Below are positions 7,349 to 38,273 of a stretch of 64,000 nt of DNA, piece after piece. Location of the stretch: NCBI RefSeq assembly GCF_002354655.1, contig NZ_DELY01000050.1, positions 15,885 to 79,884 of the forward strand. Reading direction: 5' to 3'. Below the pieces are notes generated by a model. It saw nothing but the letters and a program-made list of their open reading frames with translations. It was not told where the DNA came from and did not search any database. Each line of letters begins with the position of its first letter. Position 1 is the first letter of the stretch. The stretch is from Pseudomonas sp. UBA2684. Its GTDB lineage: Bacteria; Pseudomonadota; Gammaproteobacteria; Pseudomonadales; Pseudomonadaceae. Position numbers and translations under genes: made by a program.

Positions 7349-8167
<819 letters not shown>

Positions 8168-28533: not shown

Positions 28534-28921
28534 GGGGCCGATTAGGATTCGACGCCGGTAGCAAAACTCGAGGGGCATGCCGAGTTGGTAACAGAACTCG
28601 TAAATAAACTGTTGCAAAACTCTATAATTGCCAATGATGACAATTACGGTGCCCAACTAGCTGCGTAAGCAGCCTAGTCGCACTTCTGGTAGCTTCGGCT
28701 CCAGCAATCATTAGGGGATGTCTGTAAACCCGAAATGATTGTCATATAGAACAGAATCGTCGCCTAGTACGTTGTGGACGAAGCGACTAAAACTTACACA
28801 ACTCGCCCAAAGCACCCTGCCCGTCGGGCGGCCAAGGGTTAACTCAGTAGACACGGCTAAGCATGTAGAACCAACAGCGGAGAACTGGCGGACGGGGGTT
28901 CAAATCCCCCCGGCTCCACCA
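28534..28921 (+). ncRNA. ssrA: tmRNA; tag peptide (A)NDDNYGAQLAA at 28630-28668
   Basis: 5' GGGGCCGATTAGGATTCGAC, 3' GGGGGTTCAAATCCCCCCGGCTCCACCA, internal tag ORF ending LAA-stop. Confidence 0.97.
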
Positions 28922-29060
28922 AATAAGCCCCTGATTTTCCTAGAGAAAGTCAGGGGTTTTTCTTTGGGTGTCGATAAATAGTCGATACCGCTTCCCGTAG
29001 AAGCATCCGATCAAGCTATGCTGGCACTTCAATAGCCAATCCAGATCGGAGCAGATAATC

Positions 29061-29294: not shown

Positions 29295-30284
29295 TTAATC
29301 AATAAAACTGAGAGGGCCTAGCCTCACAGCATCCTGCAGATGATCCGGAGCCAAGTGCGCATAGCGCATGGTCATAGCCAGGCTGGAGTGACCCAGGATC
29401 TTCTGCAGGGTCAGGATGTTGCCGCCGTTCTGGATGAAGTGGCTTGCGAAGGTGTGTCGCAGCGAGTGAGCCGCCTGCCCTTTCGGTAACTGGATAGTCG
29501 TCTTGGCCAATGCACGGCGGAATGAGGTTATAGCCACGTTGGGCTGGCCATGCTGTTTCCAGTGTTGGCGGATCTTGGCTTCTAGCTCTGAAGTGATCGG
29601 CACAGAACGTACCTTGCCGCTCTTGGTTCCGCTGAAGGTGATCACCCCATTACGGAGCCCGGTCGGTTTGAGCTTTTCAGCTTCTGACCATCGAGCGCCG
29701 GTAGCCAGACAAATAAGCGTGATGATCTCAACGTGTGGGTTATCACAGCGATCACGGATGACCTCTAACAGCTCGCGGAGCTGGTCAGTGGTCAGCCAGG
29801 ACAATTCACGTTCCTGGATCTTCAATGGCTTCACCAGGGCCAACGGGTTGGCGTAGGTGATGACACCCAGTCCGCGCAGTTCGTTGTAGACCGAACGCAG
29901 ATACCCCAGCTCGTTGTTTAGGGTTTTGGGTGACGTGCCCTCCTCCAGCCTGATACGTCGATCATGGGCGTATATCTGCGGATCTAGCTTGGCTCCAAGC
30001 GGATTACCCAGGCGCTTTGCGACCAGATCCAGCTTGGAGCGGCGGCGTACACCGTCCCTTAGCGAATGTCCGTGCAGATCAAACCATGAACCAATCAGAG
30101 CCGTAAGCCGGCGCGCATCGGTGGGCTTGGGTGACCAGCTCGGGTTATCAACGACCTTGGCCCGGCACGTTGCCTCAAACCGTTGGGCCTCGCCCTTGGT
30201 CTTGAAGGTCTTGCGAAAGCGCTTGCCCTTGATCGGCTCAACATCGACCTTCCAGCGCCCGTCCGGCTGTTGCTCAATAGACAT
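29295..30284 (-). CDS. Tyrosine integrase, Pf filamentous-phage type
   Basis: MSIEQQPDGRWKVDVEPIKGKRFRKTFKTKGEA N-terminus like Pf4 PA0728; catalytic GARWSE, KSGK, HSLRH, LGH, RYAH intact; ATG at 30284. Confidence 0.9.
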   Translation of the reverse strand: MSIEQQPDGRWKVDVEPIKGKRFRKTFKTKGEAQRFEATCRAKVVDNPSWSPKPTDARRLTALIGSWFDLHGHSLRDGVRRRSKLDLVAKRLGNPLGAKLDPQIYAHDRRIRLEEGTSPKTLNNELGYLRSVYNELRGLGVITYANPLALVKPLKIQERELSWLTTDQLRELLEVIRDRCDNPHVEIITLICLATGARWSEAEKLKPTGLRNGVITFSGTKSGKVRSVPITSELEAKIRQHWKQHGQPNVAITSFRRALAKTTIQLPKGQAAHSLRHTFASHFIQNGGNILTLQKILGHSSLAMTMRYAHLAPDHLQDAVRLGPLSFID

Positions 30285-30445
30285 TAAACGGCACGCCCCC
30301 ACCTGACGTTGCGCTCTTCCAGCAGGTTTTTGATGTGCTTGTAGATGTCGTGCTCGCTCATGTCCTTGGCGGCGTAGTGATCACGAATGACCGGCCAACA
30401 TTCCCAGGTTTGCAGACGGTCAAGCACATGGAAAGCGCCGGCATG
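30284..30445 (-). pseudogene. 3' stump of a Pf-type replication initiation (rep) gene
   Basis: Manual translation AGAFHVLDRLQTWECWPVIRDHYAAKDMSEHDIYKHIKNLLEERNVRWGRAV*, with a TAATG overlap into the integrase, as in Pf rep-int; no upstream part present. Confidence 0.7.
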
Positions 30446-31291
30446 CGCAGTAAAGCCGGGCAGGAACTGCGCCTACTGGATGTGCCAGCCTATCGCCGTT
30501 ATGGCGCTTACGATGAGTTGCACGGCCTGGGGCTGGCACACAACGCCAGCAGCGAGGATGGGCGCAAGGGAGCCGGTCGCGCCTTCGCCGATACTCTCAA
30601 GCGCGCTACGGCCAAGCATTACGGTCAGCTAGCCGACATGCGCTTTACCGACTTCATCAAGACCAAAATCAAGCCTAAGGGCGCACGCTTGCGCCCCGTC
30701 GATTGTGAGCGCCTGCTGGGACACTGGGCCGCGCGCTACCGTCACGAAACCACGGCTGTAGCCCTGGCCGTGTTGATGCTGACTCACAGCACACGCATCA
30801 GCGAGACCCGGCAAGCCAAGTGGCGGTACTTCGATTTGGTCGGCAAAACCTGGCATATCCCTGCCGTCGACACCAAGACCAAGAAAGCCCACACGCTACC
30901 GCTTACCGCCCAGGTGTGCGCATTTCTGACCCGCTACCGCGCCAGCCAGTCCGCCAAGGGCTATGACGGAGCTTACCTATTTCCCGGGCTCCACGGACAA
31001 CCGTTAAACAGAACGGTCGCACAACTCGCCTTTTCCGCATTGGCGGGCGGGGAATGGACAAGCCATGACCTCAGGAAAGCCGCACGCACGGCCTGGACCG
31101 ATTTGGGTGTCGATTACCTTATTGGCGAGCTGCTGCTAAACCATGCCCTGAAAGCCTTGGACGTAACCTATATCCATACCTCTGCGGAGGTGCAAAAACG
31201 GCAGGCCCTGGAGCGCTGGCATGCCTGGCTCGATGAGCGTGGCTTTGCGGCCTTGCACAGCCCGGCGGACATTGCCTACGCCAGGACATAG
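30443..31291 (+). pseudogene. N-terminally truncated second tyrosine integrase
   Basis: TRISE, KTK, HDLRK, LLNH, TYIH catalytic motifs; no arm-binding N-terminus; abuts the rep stump. Confidence 0.72.
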
Positions 31292-31516: not shown

Positions 31517-31753
31517 ATGGGCGGAAAACCAAGACCTAAACCGTCGATAGTTGACAATTTCGAAGTTGCTTTTGTCGAGGGACATAGAAAGTACTACTTC
31601 GATCCGGCTGAACAACGATACTACTCATGGGACTCTTTGCACGGAGAGTTTGAAGTTTTCAACCGGCGGGGCTTTCACCTTGGATCAGTCTGCCCGACTA
31701 CAGGCTCACTGCTTAAACCGGCGGTACGCGGCCGCAGAATTAATCCAAATTAG
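31517..31753 (+). CDS. Stand-alone colicin E3-like ribonuclease toxin domain (78 aa)
   Basis: YSWDSLHGEFEVFNRRGFHLGSVCPTTG aligns by eye with ColE3 YEWDSQHGELEGYRASDGQHLGSFDPKTG; AGGA RBS. Confidence 0.8.
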   Translation: MGGKPRPKPSIVDNFEVAFVEGHRKYYFDPAEQRYYSWDSLHGEFEVFNRRGFHLGSVCPTTGSLLKPAVRGRRINPN

Positions 31754-31762
31754 GAGACGCAA

Positions 31763-32074
31763 ATGAGCTTTATAAAACTTTGCCTGTCCGGTGATGTGCT
31801 AGCCGAAGAAATAGATAAATGTGTCGAAGATTGGCATGAAGGGCGTGCAGGTGGTGATCAAGAGCTACATGATTTCCTAGGAATGAACTGGGATGAGTAT
31901 GCCATCTGGGCTACAAACCCATCTATTCTTCCTTTCATTTTGGCCGCCCATTACAAGGGCATATCTCTAGATGAAGAGATCAATAGAGAGCGGTATGCCT
32001 TAGCTGCACGCGCACGCTCAGCTATTGAAGCCAAGCAAATCGAAAAATGGTTGCGTGTCATGGGTAAAATTTAA
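31763..32074 (+). CDS. Hypothetical 103-aa protein, putative antitoxin/immunity protein
   Basis: AGGAG RBS overlaps the toxin stop; its TAA overlaps the next ATG; acidic N-terminal half. Function inferred from position only. Confidence 0.7.
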   Translation: MSFIKLCLSGDVLAEEIDKCVEDWHEGRAGGDQELHDFLGMNWDEYAIWATNPSILPFILAAHYKGISLDEEINRERYALAARARSAIEAKQIEKWLRVMGKI

Positions 32075-33003
32075 TGACGCGAGAGGAAAAAATGGCCAGG
32101 CGTGTATTGGCTATGCGTAACTTACTCCCTCCGTTCGACCTAGTGGGTTTGGCCTCGGAATATGGTGATGTTGAATTCTTGCAGCTTCCGCACGGGGCTG
32201 ACGGAATAACAATTGGTATTGGTGGGCTAGAAAAACCCAAGATACTGATCAACTCTACCGCGCCCGAAACGCGCATGAAGTTCACACTGGCGCATGAAAT
32301 GGGTCATGTTGTTATCCCCTGGCACACTGGCACCATTGTTTCACACTTAGACCCTGGAGAAGAGGATTTCGAATACCTGCAAATGGAGTCCGAGGCGAAT
32401 CGTTTTGCAGCTGAGCTTCTAATGCCAAGCGATTGGTTATCTGGCGAATTCGAAGAGGCTAAATCAATAGAGGGCTACTTTCACGGCGTCCTCAAAAAAT
32501 CTGGCGCATCAAAAGACGCCGCCTTCATTAAGATATTTAAAGCCCTTGCGGCTCCAATCATTTGCGCCTATGTCGACCCAAACTTCCGTCTAATTCAACT
32601 TACAAGATCAAGTACAGCTCCCTATTTTTCGCCGGCAAGACAAACGAAAATAGACAAAACAATGTTCGGTTCCGATAATGAGTTTGAGCAGTTTGAGATT
32701 GACGACAGGATTTATTTTAGCTGGCGATTTACTGGGAAAAACATTACTGAGATAGACCCCAGGAACTGGCGGGAAATTTTAGCTGTTGTCCTCTCTGACA
32801 CTAATTCTGCGGAAAAGCTACAAAGCACAAATGCAACTATGGCCGCCGCTTTCCAGAAGTCTAAAGCACTCAGTGAGCCAGAAATCTGCGGGGCAATAAT
32901 TAGAACCTTCATGACAAAAGACAACTTGTCTTATATTGCGAGCCACCCTCTTTTCGAACAATACGTATTAAAACGAGTTAAAGAACTATCAGTACGAAAA
33001 TAA
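32074..33003 (+). CDS. ImmA/IrrE-family (DUF955) zinc metallopeptidase
   Basis: KFTLAHEMGH (HExxH) and ESEANRFAAELLMP motifs; no N-terminal XRE HTH. Confidence 0.88.
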   Translation: MTREEKMARRVLAMRNLLPPFDLVGLASEYGDVEFLQLPHGADGITIGIGGLEKPKILINSTAPETRMKFTLAHEMGHVVIPWHTGTIVSHLDPGEEDFEYLQMESEANRFAAELLMPSDWLSGEFEEAKSIEGYFHGVLKKSGASKDAAFIKIFKALAAPIICAYVDPNFRLIQLTRSSTAPYFSPARQTKIDKTMFGSDNEFEQFEIDDRIYFSWRFTGKNITEIDPRNWREILAVVLSDTNSAEKLQSTNATMAAAFQKSKALSEPEICGAIIRTFMTKDNLSYIASHPLFEQYVLKRVKELSVRK

Positions 33004-33408
33004 CCTTCAGATAGCCTAATTCGTGAGCCCAGCCTCCTTTTTGGGAAGCGGGTCCCTCCAGAAGACTGCATTCTTTATACGGTCGTCAGGCACGCACGAT
33101 TCACGAATTTTTCAACGCGGCGAAATCATTGCCCTTTGCCCACCATTATTGGCTAATAAACAGCCAAGTCATGCGCCTAACATGTTGATTTACCTAACTT
33201 GTGCCACCTTAAAAAAGGTGGCAAGGTGGACATGGCGGGCGCGCTAACCTCAACCAAATACGCGATAAATACCGATTTTTTGGTTTCATCACCATGATGG
33301 AGAGGCGATCAAACCTCTTCACCTTTAGAGCCTCGTTACCGAACGCCCGCGCCCTTCAACGTATCCATGAAATAAAAAAACCTCAGCCAGGCTGTCTAGC
33401 AGACGCGC

Positions 33409-33436
33409 TTGACTGCCCACCCCTTATGCATACAAT
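33409..33436 (+). promoter_or_regulatory. Sigma-70 promoter of the retron
   Basis: TTGACT-N16-TACAAT immediately before the a1 repeat. Confidence 0.65.
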
Positions 33437-33609
33437 GAAGGTCTCTTTACGCGTTTTTGGAGCGCAAGCTCTAGTCCGGTGTATAGCCAGACTCTAATTT
33501 ATTGATCGGCTTTAGTTGCGACGAAGGCTCGTGTGGGCTTCAGTCGTCGTTCCTCCTCCTAAAGCCCACACGAGCCTTCGTCGCTATATCTTTGGTAAAG
33601 AGAACCTTC
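33437..33609 (+). ncRNA. Retron msr-msd RNA
   Basis: a1/a2 inverted repeats GAAGGTCTCTTTAC (33437-33450) / GTAAAGAGAACCTTC (33595-33609); G33451 next to the stem as candidate branching G; perfect 23-bp msd hairpin 33518-33540 / 33562-33584; upstream of effector and RT. Confidence 0.88.
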
Positions 33610-33650
33610 CTAAAACTGCTGAGTTGATGGCGTGGACTTGAGAGCTAACA

Positions 33651-34613
33651 GTGAAGTTCGATGACAAAAGGATTGAATCTCTAGCTCATGTCACTCTAAA
33701 GAACTCACGAATTGTTCTAACTCAGCCCATACTTTTCCTCTGTGGCGGCCAGATTGATATTAAGTCAGTCGAGCCACTTTCTGTGCGTGGTGCACTTGTT
33801 GATCATCTACACTCAGTTGGCTGCGATTTAGCTCAGGGCATAACACTTGCCGAAGAGTTCGCAGACTGGATTCACGACTCTAACTATCGTGATCTTTTGG
33901 TTTTTGAGAGCGATATAGCCCACATATCCTCGCTCATAGTTATTATTCTTGAGAGCGCGGGGGCACTAACTGAGCTAGGGCTATTCGTAAAAAACAAGGC
34001 GCTTAGAAATAAAATTCTTGTTTTTGTTAGGCAGGATCATTACGAGCAAAACTCTTTTGTCAGGCTAGGCCCTTTGAGGCATTTGGAAGATATCAAGGAA
34101 ACAAGTGTGTGCGCCTATCCTTGGGATCAAGATAATATTAAGAAAAGCCTAGCGCCATCCCTTCAAGAAATGAGGGAGGATATTTTAGGAGCTGTCGCTA
34201 ATCAGGATAAAAGCGAGATTTTTAATGAGGAAAATGACGGGCATATATCTTTTGTAATATATGAGGTCATAAAGACATTCCGCGCACTAAAGCTATTAGA
34301 GATCGAGTCTTATCTGGCTATTTTAAAACTTGAAATTTCAAGGGAAAAATTAAGGCGACTCTTATTTCTTCTCGGTAAATTTAATTTAGTAGGCTGCTCC
34401 AAACGTGGCCACGTTTATTATTACTATGCTGCAACAGAAATTTTGAAAGTGGAATTTGCTGGAAAGTTTGACCAAACAACAGCAAAAATTGCAGCAATGC
34501 AGTTCTATATAAACAACGATGGCGAGTCCAAAAGGGTGAATGTCATTCAGGCTGCTTACAAGCAGTCTGTTTCGGGACCAGCTGCGACCTCATCAAATGG
34601 AACGGGGTCATGA
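33651..34613 (+). CDS. Retron effector, St85/Sen2 RcaT-like (NDT-like domain plus C-terminal wHTH-like region)
   Basis: LFLCGG, DLLVFESDIA, IILESAGALTELGLF motifs; 320 aa; lies between the ncRNA and RT; TGA overlaps the RT ATG. Confidence 0.8.
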   Translation: MKFDDKRIESLAHVTLKNSRIVLTQPILFLCGGQIDIKSVEPLSVRGALVDHLHSVGCDLAQGITLAEEFADWIHDSNYRDLLVFESDIAHISSLIVIILESAGALTELGLFVKNKALRNKILVFVRQDHYEQNSFVRLGPLRHLEDIKETSVCAYPWDQDNIKKSLAPSLQEMREDILGAVANQDKSEIFNEENDGHISFVIYEVIKTFRALKLLEIESYLAILKLEISREKLRRLLFLLGKFNLVGCSKRGHVYYYYAATEILKVEFAGKFDQTTAKIAAMQFYINNDGESKRVNVIQAAYKQSVSGPAATSSNGTGS

Positions 34614-35548
34614 CTATACTGACCGAGCTATCTCAAAAGCTTTTGATTAGCTCAGAAGAGCTAAAAGAATTTATCAATACCGCTCCCTATAGGTACAAGG
34701 TTTACCCAATCCCAAAGCGAAACGGTCGCGGGGTTCGAGTAATTGCGCAACCCACAGAAGTACTGAAAGCAATGCAGCGCATGGTACTTGACGACTTCCT
34801 CGCAGGGCTCCCTGTCCATGCCTGCGCAATGGCCTATAGAGATGGCTTAGGGATAAAGGATAACGCAAGTTTACATGTAAAAAACCAGTACCTTTTAAAA
34901 ATGGACTTTTCTGATTTCTTTCCTTCTATAGGCCCCGACGATCTTATTTCCCACATAAGAAGACATAGAGAAGGAATTGGGCGGGAGGATGCTTATGCAG
35001 TTAAAAAACTGTTTTTTTGGGCCAGGAAAAAAGACCCCACTCATAGATTGAGCATTGGTGCCCCGTCCTCTCCGTTCATCTCAAATACATTGTTGTATGA
35101 TTTTGATTGCAGAGTTAATGATGAGTGCACTCGCCTCGGTATTATTTATACTAGATATGCAGATGATCTTACCTTCACTACAAACAATAAAGGCGTGCTT
35201 TTCGGCATCCCAGATTTCATCACGCATATTTGCAAATTAGTTGACTACCCAACCCTCAAAGTAAATCATGAAAAAACGGTATTTTCTTCCAAAAAAAATA
35301 ATCGCCACGTAACCGGTTTGGTCTTAACAAATGACAACAAGATTTCTTTAGGTCACGATAAAAAAAGACACATTAGATCACTGATATACAAGTACTCTCT
35401 TGGGGGTATCCCCAGCGAGGAAATTTTGGCGTTGAAGGGTATGCTCGCATTTGCCAAACATATTGAACCTGTATTTTATCAAGCTGTCATGCGCAAGTAT
35501 GGGTTTCACGTCTTAGACTCAATCATGAGTTTTCAACCTAAAGAATAA
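34610..35548 (+). CDS. Retron reverse transcriptase
   Basis: Retron region X NASLH, DFSDFFPSI, GAPSSP, RYADDLTF, region 7 VTG. Confidence 0.95.
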   Translation: MTILTELSQKLLISSEELKEFINTAPYRYKVYPIPKRNGRGVRVIAQPTEVLKAMQRMVLDDFLAGLPVHACAMAYRDGLGIKDNASLHVKNQYLLKMDFSDFFPSIGPDDLISHIRRHREGIGREDAYAVKKLFFWARKKDPTHRLSIGAPSSPFISNTLLYDFDCRVNDECTRLGIIYTRYADDLTFTTNNKGVLFGIPDFITHICKLVDYPTLKVNHEKTVFSSKKNNRHVTGLVLTNDNKISLGHDKKRHIRSLIYKYSLGGIPSEEILALKGMLAFAKHIEPVFYQAVMRKYGFHVLDSIMSFQPKE

Positions 35549-35838
35549 CCCCTCAGCATTTGTGCCGTTGGCTGGGCTCGCTTGATGGTGTCGTGTAAGG
35601 ACACGCCTCGACACGGTTCGCCTTAAAAGCTACGCCGATTGTGAATCTGAGACCAAGCACCTTACGAAGACCATGGCAACATCTTCTTAGTGGGGTTTAA
35701 GAGTTTTTGCCTGGGACAATGGATAGCAACTGGCACTGTGTATGCCCTCGTGTATGCCGAGGCAACATAAAACACAGAAAATGCTTAAATATCATGGGCT
35801 TTTAGAGCTTGTTCAAACGACCCCGGCCCACCAAACAT

Positions 35839-35885
35839 ACATCTAAGGGCGTCCACGGACGTCCTTTTTTGTGCCTGAAATCCAG
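35839..35885 (+). repeat. 47-bp direct repeat, copy 1 (contains terminator hairpin)
   Basis: ACATCTAAGGGCGTCCACGGACGTCCTTTTTTGTGCCTGAAATCCAG, identical to 37923-37969; preceded by a damaged ssrA 3' copy. Confidence 0.92.
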
Positions 35886-35975
35886 AAAATACGGGGCTTT
35901 CAGCTCCATATAAGTCCACCTATTGGATATCTGATTTTCGGTGGTGAGCGCTAAATTCAAGCAGCTACCTAACGT

Positions 35976-36242
35976 TCAGCGTGAGCTTCTTGGCACAATA
36001 CCAACCTGCATACCGAACGGATTAAACACGCTATTCAAGGTCTGAACGGTCGGGTTGCTTTCGTCATGTTCTAGCTGACGCAACGCACGTAGGGACAGCT
36101 TACACATCTGTGCGAACCTTGCCTGCTGCAACCCCGTCACGTCCTTGCGTAAACGCCTAACTGCCTCGCCGATAGTGATTTCGCCAGAAGCCAGCTGCTC
36201 CTGTAGCTCGGTGAGAATCCGATTTCGTTCGAGAATATCCAT
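35976..36242 (-). CDS. XRE-family HTH protein, putative HipB-like antitoxin
   Basis: AVRRLRKDVTGLQQARFAQMCKLSLRALRQLEHDESNPTVQTL; TAATG overlap with the upstream hipA stop. Confidence 0.85.
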   Translation of the reverse strand: MDILERNRILTELQEQLASGEITIGEAVRRLRKDVTGLQQARFAQMCKLSLRALRQLEHDESNPTVQTLNSVFNPFGMQVGIVPRSSR

Positions 36243-37567
36243 TAGATGAGCCCCCAGTTTTTGAGCCGCTGAGGCAGATCTCGCAACGCTATGCGCGGAT
36301 GATTCATTGTCGCCGCAGGCAGTCCATCTGCACTCAACAAGTCAGGCAAAGCCAGGAAAGCTTGAGCTGCGGCCCTGAGCCGCTGAAATAGCTCATCAAC
36401 CTCGACCCACTCAGCAGCTTCATCGCAGGCAGCTTTCCAGTCGACCTGACCAGCCATCTCAATCTGCTTTGGCCATTTTGTTGTACGCGTTACACCTTCA
36501 TCATCCATAACCATAGGGGCCAGATCATAGATTGGGGCCAGGCTCATGCCTTGCTCAGTCCGAAGGATTGAGGTGTTTCGACCATGGTTGTCTGAGTTGC
36601 CAAGAATCTGGTTCAGTAAATCACGCCGCATGTACTCGAATACCAAATCACCAACCTGTTCGGCCTGTCCAACGTTTTGCCATAACGCGACCAAATTTCG
36701 TAGCACATCCGAATGCGACATATAGCTGCCAGCTTCGGCTACGCCTGACAGTGAATACATCGACTCAACAGCGACACGATTAACGCCGGCAGGACCAACC
36801 CCACGATCAAAGCGATGCATCCACAGGCTGGGCTTCTTTCCTTCCTCCAAAGCCAATCCTTCGGCTGCTATGGTATCGAGCCCCAACTGCCGAACCGCTC
36901 GATAGAAGCAGTACTCGCTGCGGAGGATGTCCTGATCGGTCTGACTGGCTTTGTTGCGTGCGAATTTCACAAACCAGTGCTGGACAGCATCTGCATCGGG
37001 CAATACAGCGTCGGGATGCAATGCGCCATGGCGGTCTTCTGTTAACAGTAGCTTTGGCGCCTCACCGCCTGCTCCAGTAGCACCGCCAATTGCAGCTCCC
37101 TGCTCATAGGCATACTCCAAAAAGCGTGAGTCGCGGCTGACCACTTCGTCTCGCGTAAAACCCAACACAGGACTGCCTGCGACTGCGCCTGCCGACTCCT
37201 TGATACGCAAATTTCCAATAGGCGCAGGCGTACAGCGCCCCAACAGAAACAAATCCAGGCTCATGCCCTCCGGTCGCTCACCACTCAAACGCTTCAGCAA
37301 AAAGCGTCTAGCCGCTCCAGCAGGCAAGATATCGAAGAGAAAGGCCGGAGCCTTCTTACTCCGCCAAGAGTCCCAACCCAAAGGTAAAGTGGCACTGACC
37401 GCGCCATTCAGACGAGTGCTAATCGAGTCAAGGGAGCCCACTAGATAGCCCTGCTCGTACCCATACGTACAAGGACCATCCAACCCTAGGTCAGGCTGCT
37501 CGAAACCAATCCCCATGGCGTCCTGCCATTCACCACCCGCATAGATTTGTAGAGTGAGCTTGTACAT
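36242..37567 (-). CDS. hipA: HipA-family kinase toxin
   Basis: Gly loop GATGAGGEAPKLLL, GNSDNHGRN, LAPIYDL; likely ATG at 37567. Confidence 0.88.
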   Translation of the reverse strand: MYKLTLQIYAGGEWQDAMGIGFEQPDLGLDGPCTYGYEQGYLVGSLDSISTRLNGAVSATLPLGWDSWRSKKAPAFLFDILPAGAARRFLLKRLSGERPEGMSLDLFLLGRCTPAPIGNLRIKESAGAVAGSPVLGFTRDEVVSRDSRFLEYAYEQGAAIGGATGAGGEAPKLLLTEDRHGALHPDAVLPDADAVQHWFVKFARNKASQTDQDILRSEYCFYRAVRQLGLDTIAAEGLALEEGKKPSLWMHRFDRGVGPAGVNRVAVESMYSLSGVAEAGSYMSHSDVLRNLVALWQNVGQAEQVGDLVFEYMRRDLLNQILGNSDNHGRNTSILRTEQGMSLAPIYDLAPMVMDDEGVTRTTKWPKQIEMAGQVDWKAACDEAAEWVEVDELFQRLRAAAQAFLALPDLLSADGLPAATMNHPRIALRDLPQRLKNWGLI

Positions 37568-37894
37568 AGCGATAACCGGTAACTTAATGCCTAAAACCTT
37601 AGCCAAGTCACAGCAAAAAGGCAATTAACTGCCGAAAAACCCTCTATAACAATCAAAAATAGGCACTTTAATACCTGCAAAAACTCTATACTCAGTAGCT
37701 AGACGCCCCCGCACAGCGCGGGGTCAACTCAGTAATGAGGATTTGAACCAGCAATTTGGATTCGCTACGTGCCTCTTAACGAAGGGCTCAAGGTTTCTAT
37801 ACTCGGGGCCGTGACTGTATGAATTCCAACAAATCATTGGCGAAAGGCAACTGGCCTAGAACCGTTGATTTGAGCAGGGGTAAGACGTTTAGGA

Positions 37895-37969
37895 TTCAAA
37901 TCCCCCCGGCTCCACCAAATACACATCTAAGGGCGTCCACGGACGTCCTTTTTTGTGCCTGAAATCCAG
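37895..37969 (+). repeat. attR: displaced ssrA 3' end plus terminator (47-bp repeat copy 2)
   Basis: 27/27 identity to 28899-28925, followed by hairpin AGGGCGTCC-AC-GGACGTCCT and a T-tract. Confidence 0.92.
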
Positions 37970-38273
37970 TAACTCAGCGCCATCAGTGTCCAGAATTCGT
38001 TGACCACAACAAGCAGCACCGTGGGGGTTCAACTCCCTTCTTAAAGGCGTCGCCGCCCTTGCCGAAGAGCGTCAAGGGAAAGTTACTCTGCGCATGCACC
38101 AGGCCGATATCAAACAGCTCGGGCCTGCGACTGAATCGCCCCTTGGCAGTCATTTGGCTGCTAATTTCACACCTACCGATGATGGCCGTTGGCGAGGTCA
38201 CGCCGACGCGTCACGGACGCCCGACGGGGTGGGTTGTAAACCTTGCGCCGCGCGATTTCAGAGGAGACGCAGC

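Follow-up and report, generated by a model that had tools for sequence, protein, structure and literature searches.

An intact retron of the St85/Sen2 family in a tmRNA-linked island of a Pseudomonas genome

Introduction

Does the AT-rich DNA beside the tmRNA gene of Pseudomonas sp. UBA2684 hold a complete retron, and if so, of which family, by what route was it gained and what would it respond to? The window analysed here is a stretch of 64 000 nucleotides, and all positions refer to it. The whole retron (promoter, template RNA, toxin-like effector and reverse transcriptase, RT) is intact and belongs to the St85/Sen2 family known from Salmonella. A probability of about 0.86 is given to the reading that the locus is a functional retron of type II-A1 (St85/Sen2 family), which would act against phages as a three-part toxin–antitoxin system and was gained horizontally in a tmRNA-linked island. 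The present analysis established how the locus is built, to which family it belongs, and that its catalytic residues, RNA structure and gene order are conserved among relatives.

Organization of the locus

The features of the locus and of the island edges are as follows.

28896–28925, + strand: 3′ end of the tmRNA gene, left attachment site (att) and island boundary
33409–33436, + strand: σ70-like promoter of the retron operon (TTGACT, 16-nt spacer, TACAAT; 10 of 12 consensus positions)
33442–33510, + strand: msr, comprising a1, the candidate branching G, one variable and one conserved hairpin (the latter AGUCCGG...CCAGACU), and a conserved UUAUUGA
33442–33450, + strand: a1 arm (TCTCTTTAC), 100% complementary to 33595–33603
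33451, + strand: candidate branching guanosine (priming 2′-OH), the first unpaired base 3′ of a1
33511–33594, − strand: predicted msd, between the end of msr and a2; the RNA is the template and the msDNA (about 80–88 nt) would be its complement; 3′ limit approximate
33518–33584, + strand: long msd stem-loop (26-bp stem, 15-nt loop), without GATC
33595–33603, + strand: a2 arm (GTAAAGAGA), partner of a1
33651–34613, + strand: effector (RcaT-type), 320 aa, GTG start; N-terminal NDT-like and C-terminal winged-helix domains, candidate triad F29/E86/E108
34610–35548, + strand: retron RT, 312 aa, ATG start overlapping the effector TGA; NASLH85, YADD183, VTG234
35821–35888, + strand: inner degenerate att with terminator, right edge of the retron segment; family D1, 91% identical to 37905–37972
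35845–35866, + strand: terminator-like hairpin and T-run, the first 3′ of the RT, within the degenerate att copy
37892–37972, + strand: outer right att (tmRNA 3′ end, 37892–37921) with terminator; D1 and D2

A preliminary description of this DNA had read a promoter, an msr-msd, an effector and an RT here, all intact, in AT-rich surroundings and with the two genes translationally coupled, and each of these elements was recovered. The cassette runs on the + strand in the order ncRNA, effector, RT, which is the order of Retron-Sen2. The effector and RT frames are both open and are joined by an ATGA overlap (GTCATGACT), in which the RT start codon shares bases with the effector stop codon. The related loci used for comparison were gathered by an alignment-based search (a single-effector locus search of genome contigs returned none), and in 76 of the 80 the RT lies directly 3′ of the effector and in the same orientation. 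A fourth gene was looked for, but the + strand has no open reading frame of at least 50 aa from the RT stop to the degenerate att. GC content is 37–48% across 33000–35999 versus 61–66% outside the island.

The predicted transcript start coincides roughly with the first base of a1. The promoter scan as a whole gave no enrichment over shuffled sequences; of the 14 relatives listed, most (eight counted) have a TTGAC(A/T) box upstream of a1 at a similar distance. The hairpin at 35845–35866, which presumably terminates the retron operon, duplicates sequence at 37929–37950.

The effector

Family membership of the effector was determined with profile models. It scores 242 bits against NF038232, an equivalog model named after STM3845 with an NCBIfam cut-off of 100, and the best PADLOC effector model is NDT_II-A (272 bits), in keeping with the NDT-like motifs first noted in this 320-residue protein. 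The local Pfam search gave no match for the effector; PF28093 is assigned to all of its homologues in precomputed tables and is apparently newer than the local Pfam copy. In the AlphaFold model (pLDDT 86) the best PDB fold match is the effector of Retron-Eco1 (E = 3e-11 over 314 columns), and the C-terminal part resembles winged helices of the ArsR/SmtB type. By sequence, the match to the solved Eco1 effector is confined to the N-terminal half (E = 4e-8, 36 bits).

Residues of Sen2 RcaT were mapped through a Lelliottia orthologue, which shares the Sen2 numbering. This stand-in is 81% identical to a partial 'hypothetical protein' of Salmonella enterica (cluster of 2,592 members), which we take to be Sen2 RcaT itself. 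All 26 homologues compared keep F29, E86 and E108, which align with F28, E85 and E107, the catalytic triad of Sen2 RcaT (Spatharas et al., bioRxiv 10.64898/2026.10.13.758329). The protein therefore has what is expected of an effector of the type II-A1/St85 (Sen2) family.

Toxin–antitoxin behaviour should nevertheless not be assumed for this locus, because the effector is only 33–34% identical to Sen2-type RcaT and some RcaT clades are non-toxic on their own (Spatharas et al.). The effector might instead belong to the dimer-only RcaT class (Eco1-, Eco3- and Vch3-like) and be harmless alone. Defence would then need no classical toxin–antitoxin pair; an RT–msDNA–effector assembly might, for example, hydrolyse NAD+ after a phage has altered the msDNA. 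The residues of the Sen2 tetramer interface are partly conserved here. S253 aligns with a natural glycine that is nearly invariant in the present clade, and S253G in Sen2 RcaT abolishes tetramer-dependent toxicity (Spatharas et al.); D169 aligns with P169, and non-toxic clades do exist within the family. Against this, D173 is matched by the likewise acidic E173, and interface conservation is low even among tetramer-forming clades (Spatharas et al.), so that single residues are poor predictors. Moreover, Sen2-type RcaT is much the closer match of the two (134 bits, 34% identity over 287 residues); the Eco1 effector gives the 36 bits noted above. We consider the dimer-only assignment unlikely, and the tripartite toxin–antitoxin reading is retained.

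The tmRNA island and the origin of the retron

The retron lies in an island bounded by the tmRNA gene (ssrA, 28534–28921) and by a repeat of its 3′ end at 37892–37921, where Rfam also reports a partial tmRNA match (37805–37917); the placement in an ssrA island suggested at the outset is borne out. The island has no contents other than the retron, two integrases, a ColE3-type toxin cassette that includes a peptidase, and HipBA. It can be described as a small defence island made up of the last two and the retron. A link between the retron and the neighbouring ColE3/peptidase cassette was considered and rejected, the cassette being present in none of the 80 related loci.

The general remark of the preliminary description that retrons can travel in Pf prophages is documented (PMC11878078): PfAC04 and PfAC01 bear an annotated St85-family effector and RT at one end. 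The present retron could have been brought in by a filamentous Pf-like prophage that afterwards lost its core, a proposal that concerns its origin only. The integrase at 29295–30302 (− strand) is 56–58% identical to Pf phage integrases, and in the related loci L006 and L041 the C-terminal part of a Pf-type integrase lies 3′ of an St85-type retron in the same orientation. Here, however, the Pf-type integrase is on the strand opposite to the retron, whereas the two share a strand in PfAC04, and the second integrase and the toxin cassette stand between them. Pf core genes are absent from the island; of the genes looked for as marks of Pf (Inoviridae) cargo, neither coat, Zot-like, ssDNA-binding nor replication initiator genes were found in it. 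The Pf-borne effector is 33% identical to the present one, and the closest relatives (L001–L003) have no Pf-type integrase match within about 5 kb of flank on each side, L002 adjoining tRNA-Thr. A simple Pf-cargo origin is not supported, and an origin with later loss of the phage core is doubtful.

The island is a mosaic: one att is degenerate, the second integrase is short at its N terminus, and the Pf-type integrase is unaccompanied by phage core genes. This might also suggest that the cassette only looks intact and is a silent or decaying relic that makes no msDNA and gives no defence. Such a relic is very improbable: neither the effector nor the RT is truncated or lacks a catalytic or family-invariant residue, the four RNA helices are intact, and the promoter and translational coupling are kept.

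The noncoding RNA and the reverse transcriptase

The msr-msd gene spans 33442–33603. The Rfam msr model (RF00170) matches 33442–33510 over its full length (1–69) with 42 bits and E = 9e-5, which is below the gathering score of 52. The RNA has the parts required of a retron ncRNA, namely the a1/a2 repeat, a conserved G directly 3′ of a1 and an msd hairpin, next to an RT operon. The guanosine at 33451 is invariant in 27 of 27 aligned loci (alignment G14), and its branching role would follow from retron biology. The ends of the predicted msd were placed by likeness to msDNA-St85 and should be read as approximate. The arms of the msd hairpin (33518–33543 and 33559–33584) are 26 nt each and 96% complementary.

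The fold energy of the ncRNA is −74.7 kcal/mol (z = −7.9 versus shuffles), and all four helices are intact in the present sequence. Across 27 loci 93% of cells are paired versus 35–42% in slid controls, and compensatory changes occur in 27 of 35 pairs, a level reached by none of 500 shuffles. Helix 1 (a1/a2) is 98% paired, with compensatory changes in five of eight pairs; helix 2 (msr) is 95.8% paired in the 27 relatives; helices 3 and 4, which form the msd stem, show compensatory changes in 19 of 20 pairs. The ncRNA is nearly identical in L001–L003.

The RT carries the YxDD, NAxxH and VTG motifs of retron RTs, in agreement with the preliminary description, and also has a Pfam RVT_1 match. Its strongest PADLOC matches are all retron RT models, with RT_II-A best (413 bits) and RT_I-A at 384 bits. 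Compared with solved retron RTs in the PDB it gives E values of about 1e-76 to 5e-65; the scores are 223–259 bits for I-A-type RTs and 119 bits for the Eco1 RT. The protein is thus of the clade-1 kind (St85-type, common with type I-A). A grouping of the RT outside the retrons had been named beforehand as fatal to the retron reading; by profile score it falls within them (NF038233, retron_St85_RT, 355 bits against an NCBIfam cut-off of 235). That it is a non-retron prokaryotic RT (group II intron, DRT/UG or Abi) lying beside a fortuitous hairpin, as weak matches to group II, Drt2–5 and AbiA models could hint, is refuted by the PADLOC and NCBIfam scores (17–36 bits for the non-retron models versus cut-offs of 200–550), by the retron-specific NAxxH and VTG and by the RNA covariation across 27 loci, and its probability is practically nil.

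Distribution and significance

Dozens of effector homologues in Pseudomonas already bear the name 'retron St85 family effector protein'. The present effector is 53–70% identical to these and up to 75% identical to unnamed homologues, the nearest of all. St85 retrons of P. protegens, P. gessardii, P. chlororaphis, P. paraglycinae, P. oryzihabitans and others belong to the same clade and have the same effector length. Their context differs: L002 adjoins tRNA-Thr, as noted above, and L006 tRNA-Met, while no tRNA or tmRNA gene was found beside L001 or L003 within the flanks examined. The present genome has a single retron copy. A homologue was found in only one of 47 other same-genus species genomes sampled, and it is distant (34% identity); with the single copy, this marks the cassette as accessory and patchily distributed. 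An NF038232 search of 14 control genomes found no copy.

The locus is real but ordinary; this Pseudomonas clade of St85-type retrons has already been annotated automatically in many genomes. The likeness to Sen2/St85 that was proposed at first holds for both proteins, which lie above the NCBIfam St85 cut-offs, and for the gene order. The further suggestion of a new Pseudomonas variant stands for the sequence, which is at most 75% identical to anything in the collections compared, and fails for the clade. Beyond correct annotation the importance is slight: this is one more intact type II-A1 retron in a family that the NCBI pipeline already names. It may be of modest use in comparisons of trigger with Sen2, being native to Pseudomonas and having no Dam site in its predicted msDNA, and possibly as an editing scaffold.

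Proposed mechanism and trigger

Synthesis of msDNA, sequestration of the effector, toxicity and defence would be expected by analogy with work on Sen2 and Eco1. As in Sen2, one promoter would give a transcript that covers the msr-msd RNA together with both protein genes, and the RNA would fold through the a1/a2 duplex. The RT would prime at the 2′-OH of G33451 and copy the msd into a hairpin msDNA of about 80–88 nt. The RT–msDNA complex would then hold the NDT-like/winged-helix effector (an RcaT homologue) inactive by binding it. In an infected cell the effector would be released when a phage protein modified, bound or degraded the msDNA. Its F29/E86/E108 site may then act on NAD+ or a nucleotide, the chemistry being of the ADP-ribosyl or N-glycosidase kind, and growth of the cell would be arrested.

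The trigger was considered separately. In Sen2 it involves a palindromic GATC in the msd stem that is read by the β8–β9 hairpin of RcaT, a feature of Sen2 itself and not of the family. A scan of the msd stem found no GATC here; the sole GATC of the ncRNA (33504–33507) lies outside the stem and is missing in L001, L002, L004 and L005. In the hairpin, Y252-S253-S254-x-K256 of Sen2 aligns with R252-G253-H254-V255-Y256 of the present effector. Because the stem has no GATC and the GATC-reading hairpin is altered, the trigger probably differs from the Dam methylation of Sen2. More tentatively, and at rather less than even odds, the Pseudomonas St85 clade, with no Dam site and a conserved R-G-H-V-Y hairpin, may be a natural specificity variant that senses a different phage activity and may become active by oligomerising through a different interface. 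If so, the activity sensed might be that of a nuclease/recombinase, of an ssDNA-binding protein or of some other enzyme that modifies DNA.

Comparison with known systems

The retrons of the P. aeruginosa Pf phages PfAC01 and PfAC04 (PMC11878078) come from the same genus and have an effector and RT with the same ATGA-type overlap. They sit in complete Pf genomes, whereas the present locus has a Pf-type integrase only, on the opposite strand.

The RT and ncRNA module is closely akin to that of type I-A retrons (Ec78/Eco7 and Ec83), which fits the module shared by types IA and IIA1 in Mestre et al. (PMC7736814). The effectors of type I-A are a PtuA-like ATPase and an HNH nuclease, unlike the NDT-like protein found here.

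Retron-Eco1 (Ec86, type II-A3; PDB entries 7V9X, 7XJG and 8QBK) provides the only solved effector of the present fold, with the same two domains and an aligned catalytic Glu in 'TELG'. It is distant, the effector match being limited to 36 bits in the N-terminal half and the RT match to 119 bits versus 250–259 bits for clade-1 RTs, and its assembly architecture differs from that of Sen2 (Spatharas et al.).

The nearest characterized system is Retron-Sen2 (msDNA-St85 of Salmonella Typhimurium; msrmsd-rcaT-rrtT, type II-A1; Mestre et al., 2020, PMC7736814; Bobonis et al., bioRxiv 10.1101/2020.06.22.160168; Spatharas et al., bioRxiv 10.64898/2026.10.13.758329). The present locus differs from it in host (Pseudomonas) and site (a tmRNA island), and in identity to the enterobacterial Sen2-type proteins, which is 33–34% for the effector (Salmonella, Lelliottia) and 47% for the RT (Lelliottia). 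Its msd stem is without the GATC that is present in the Sen2-type msd of Lelliottia, its β8–β9 hairpin reads RGHVY versus YSSxK, and a proline replaces Sen2 D169. The two share the ncRNA–effector–RT order and the plan of the ncRNA (a1/a2, a G 3′ of a1, a conserved msr hairpin and a long msd hairpin). Both present proteins pass NCBIfam models built on Sen2, the catalytic triad is kept, and so is the N-terminal Leu-Leu pair of the RT, which in Sen2 docks on RcaT.

Retron operon and its putative promoter

The retron occupies positions 33409–35548 of the window and is made up of the following features.

33409–33436: promoter-like site TTGACT-16-TACAAT upstream of a1, from a promoter scan
33442–33450 with 33595–33603: 9-nt inverted repeat a1/a2, the arms of the ncRNA end duplex, enclosing the msd hairpin
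33518–33543 with 33559–33584: 26-bp hairpin (msd stem) inside a1/a2
33651–34613, + strand: effector ORF, 320 aa, GTG start
34404–34418, + strand: effector residues 252–256, the hairpin aligned to Sen2 β8–β9
34610–35548, + strand: reverse transcriptase (RT) ORF, 312 aa

The effector and RT frames overlap via ATGA, and the RT carries NASLH at residue 85, YADD at residue 183 and VTG at residue 234. The GC content is 0.37–0.48 in the retron region versus 0.61–0.66 in the flanks. The preliminary description, which had claimed a promoter, an msr-msd and two apparently translationally coupled genes in AT-rich DNA of an ssrA island, is therefore correct in content and coordinates: the ORFs, motifs, promoter-like site and repeats are present as described, and a tmRNA gene lies at 28534–28921. 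The promoter scan as a whole gave no enrichment; the call at 33409–33436 is nevertheless backed by a TTGAC(A/T) box that most of the listed relatives carry about equally far upstream of a1.

Noncoding RNA

The Rfam msr model matched at full length at 33442–33510 with 42 bits (E = 9e-5), below its gathering score of 52, and the 166-nt stretch has a fold energy of −74.7 kcal/mol (z = −7.9). Comparative evidence is stronger than either. Related loci (80) were fetched by effector alignment, and in most of the first 45 an a1/a2 repeat, its arms approximately 150 nt apart, precedes the effector. Aligning 27 of these ncRNAs yielded a consensus of four helices (a1/a2, a conserved msr hairpin and two msd-stem segments), with 93% of cells paired versus 35–42% with the partners slid and compensatory changes in 27 of 35 pairs versus 10–16; the observed values were matched in none of 500 shuffles. 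G33451, directly after a1, is invariant in the alignment and is the natural candidate for the branching G.

The a2 arm ends 47 nt before the effector start in the window and only 6–38 nt before it in six related St85-type loci (L019, L025, L028, L032, L033 and L045), a largely betaproteobacterial group, where RNA folding or priming could influence effector translation.

Reverse transcriptase and effector families

The RT matches Pfam RVT_1, the PADLOC models RT_II-A (413 bits) and then RT_I-A (384 bits), and NCBIfam retron_St85_RT (355 bits; curated cut-off 235). The closest solved structures are Ec78/Ec83-type retron RTs (E = 4e-76 to 5e-65), with the Ec86 RT a far weaker match (E = 2e-33). 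This pattern is consistent with clade 1 of Mestre et al., whose types I-A and II-A1 have a single ncRNA–RT module in common (PMC7736814).

The effector was matched by PADLOC NDT_II-A (272 bits) and by the NCBIfam equivalog NF038232 (STM3845_fam, 'retron St85 family effector protein'; 242 bits, cut-off 100). In searches with its AlphaFold model (26 homologues, pLDDT 86), the three best folds were the Retron-Eco1 effector, aligned over the whole length (E = 3e-11), and the C-terminal third of the predicted structure resembles ArsR/SmtB-type winged helices.

Distribution of relatives

Searching with the effector gave 74 homologues. The closest (72–75% identity) are unnamed; among named proteins the nearest (≤70%) are annotated 'retron St85 family effector protein' and come from many species of Pseudomonas. 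Annotation pipelines already recognise the family. In 76 of the 80 related loci the RT gene comes after the effector gene in the same orientation; the other four gave no RT match, and three of these end within approximately 1 kb of the aligned effector. The retron occurs once in the genome, only one of 47 other sampled same-genus species genomes has a homologue, a distant one, and close relatives occupy other genomic contexts, so that the cassette is a patchy, mobile accessory module.

The tmRNA island and the Pf-type integrase

28534–28921: tmRNA gene
28896–28925: tmRNA 3′ end (left att), repeated at 37892–37921
29295–30302, − strand: Pf-type tyrosine integrase, inner segment, opposite strand to the retron
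30284–30427, − strand: possible replication-initiator stump accompanying the Pf-type integrase
30335–31291, + strand: second tyrosine integrase
31517–33003, + strand: toxin cassette
35821–35888: degenerate att copy carrying the same terminator, here the first one after the retron RT
35976–37624, − strand: HipBA, a HipB-like HTH gene (88 aa) overlapping a HipA-like kinase gene (460 aa)

The tmRNA 3′ end and terminator hairpin are duplicated at 35821–35888 and 37905–37972 (91% identity), pointing to two integration events at ssrA, one after the other. The three att copies delimit an inner segment of approximately 6.9 kb containing the retron, both integrases and the toxin cassette, and a second of approximately 2 kb in which HipBA stands alone, between the degenerate att and the outer att (37892–37972). 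The second integrase matches PRK09692 only at positions 237–390 of 413 and seems to have lost its N-terminal part, perhaps through the adjacent Pf-type insertion. The toxin cassette encodes a free-standing 'Cytotoxic' domain of colicin-E3 type (78 aa), a protein of 103 aa that matched no family and an M78/IrrE-type peptidase that also matches the PADLOC CapP model (E = 3e-25); this ColE3-type/peptidase cassette was found in none of the 80 related retron loci.

Carriage of retrons by Pf phages, noted in the preliminary description, holds for PfAC01 and PfAC04, which bear St85-family retrons (PMC11878078). The integrase at 29295–30302 shares 56–58% identity with filamentous Pf phage integrases and 67.5% with that of phage vB_PaeS-D14B. 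A simple Pf-cargo origin of the window retron is unsupported, because the integrase and retron lie on opposite strands and the island lacks Pf core genes. Two related loci, L006 (Stutzerimonas azotifigens) and L041 (Pseudomonas sp. PA27), have a C-terminal Pf-type integrase fragment on the same strand approximately 0.6–0.9 kb downstream of the RT (7421–7732 and 7743–7919, respectively), followed in L006 by a tRNA-Met gene. They may be Pf prophages that lost the core and kept the retron, possibly a recurrent pattern.

Comparison with Sen2

The comparison set consisted of a partial Salmonella enterica protein (cluster of 2,592 members), presumably the RcaT of Sen2 although its source gives no such name, and its Lelliottia orthologue, which shares the Sen2 residue numbering and served as a bridge. 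Identity to the enterobacterial Sen2-type proteins is 33–34% for the effector and 47% for the RT. Effector residues F29, E86 and E108, invariant across the family alignment, align with F28/E85/E107, the reported catalytic triad of Sen2 RcaT (bioRxiv 10.64898/2026.10.13.758329).

The trigger probably differs. The Lelliottia Sen2-type msd has GATC within its stem, whereas the window stem has none; the sole GATC of the ncRNA (33504–33507) falls outside it and is unconserved within the clade. The β8–β9 hairpin that reads the GATC site in Sen2 (bioRxiv 10.64898/2026.10.13.758329) is Y252-S253-S254-x-K256 there and R252-G253-H254-V255-Y256 here. Given this stem and altered hairpin, a Dam-methylation trigger appears unlikely. 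Sen2 D169 and D173 correspond to proline and glutamate, respectively.

G253 is nearly invariant in the Pseudomonas-centred clade and aligns with Sen2 S253; in Sen2, S253G abolished toxicity. RcaT proteins of tetramer-forming clades are toxic alone and those of dimer-only clades are not (both bioRxiv 10.64898/2026.10.13.758329); by sequence this effector may belong to either class, the Sen2 study itself reporting low interface conservation.

We infer all functional steps from homologues. As in Sen2, the effector would be sequestered by an RT–msDNA complex and released on phage perturbation of the msDNA, after which it would act through its NDT-like active site, which in Sen2 and Eco1 has NAD+-dependent ADP-ribosyl activity (bioRxiv 10.64898/2026.10.13.758329).
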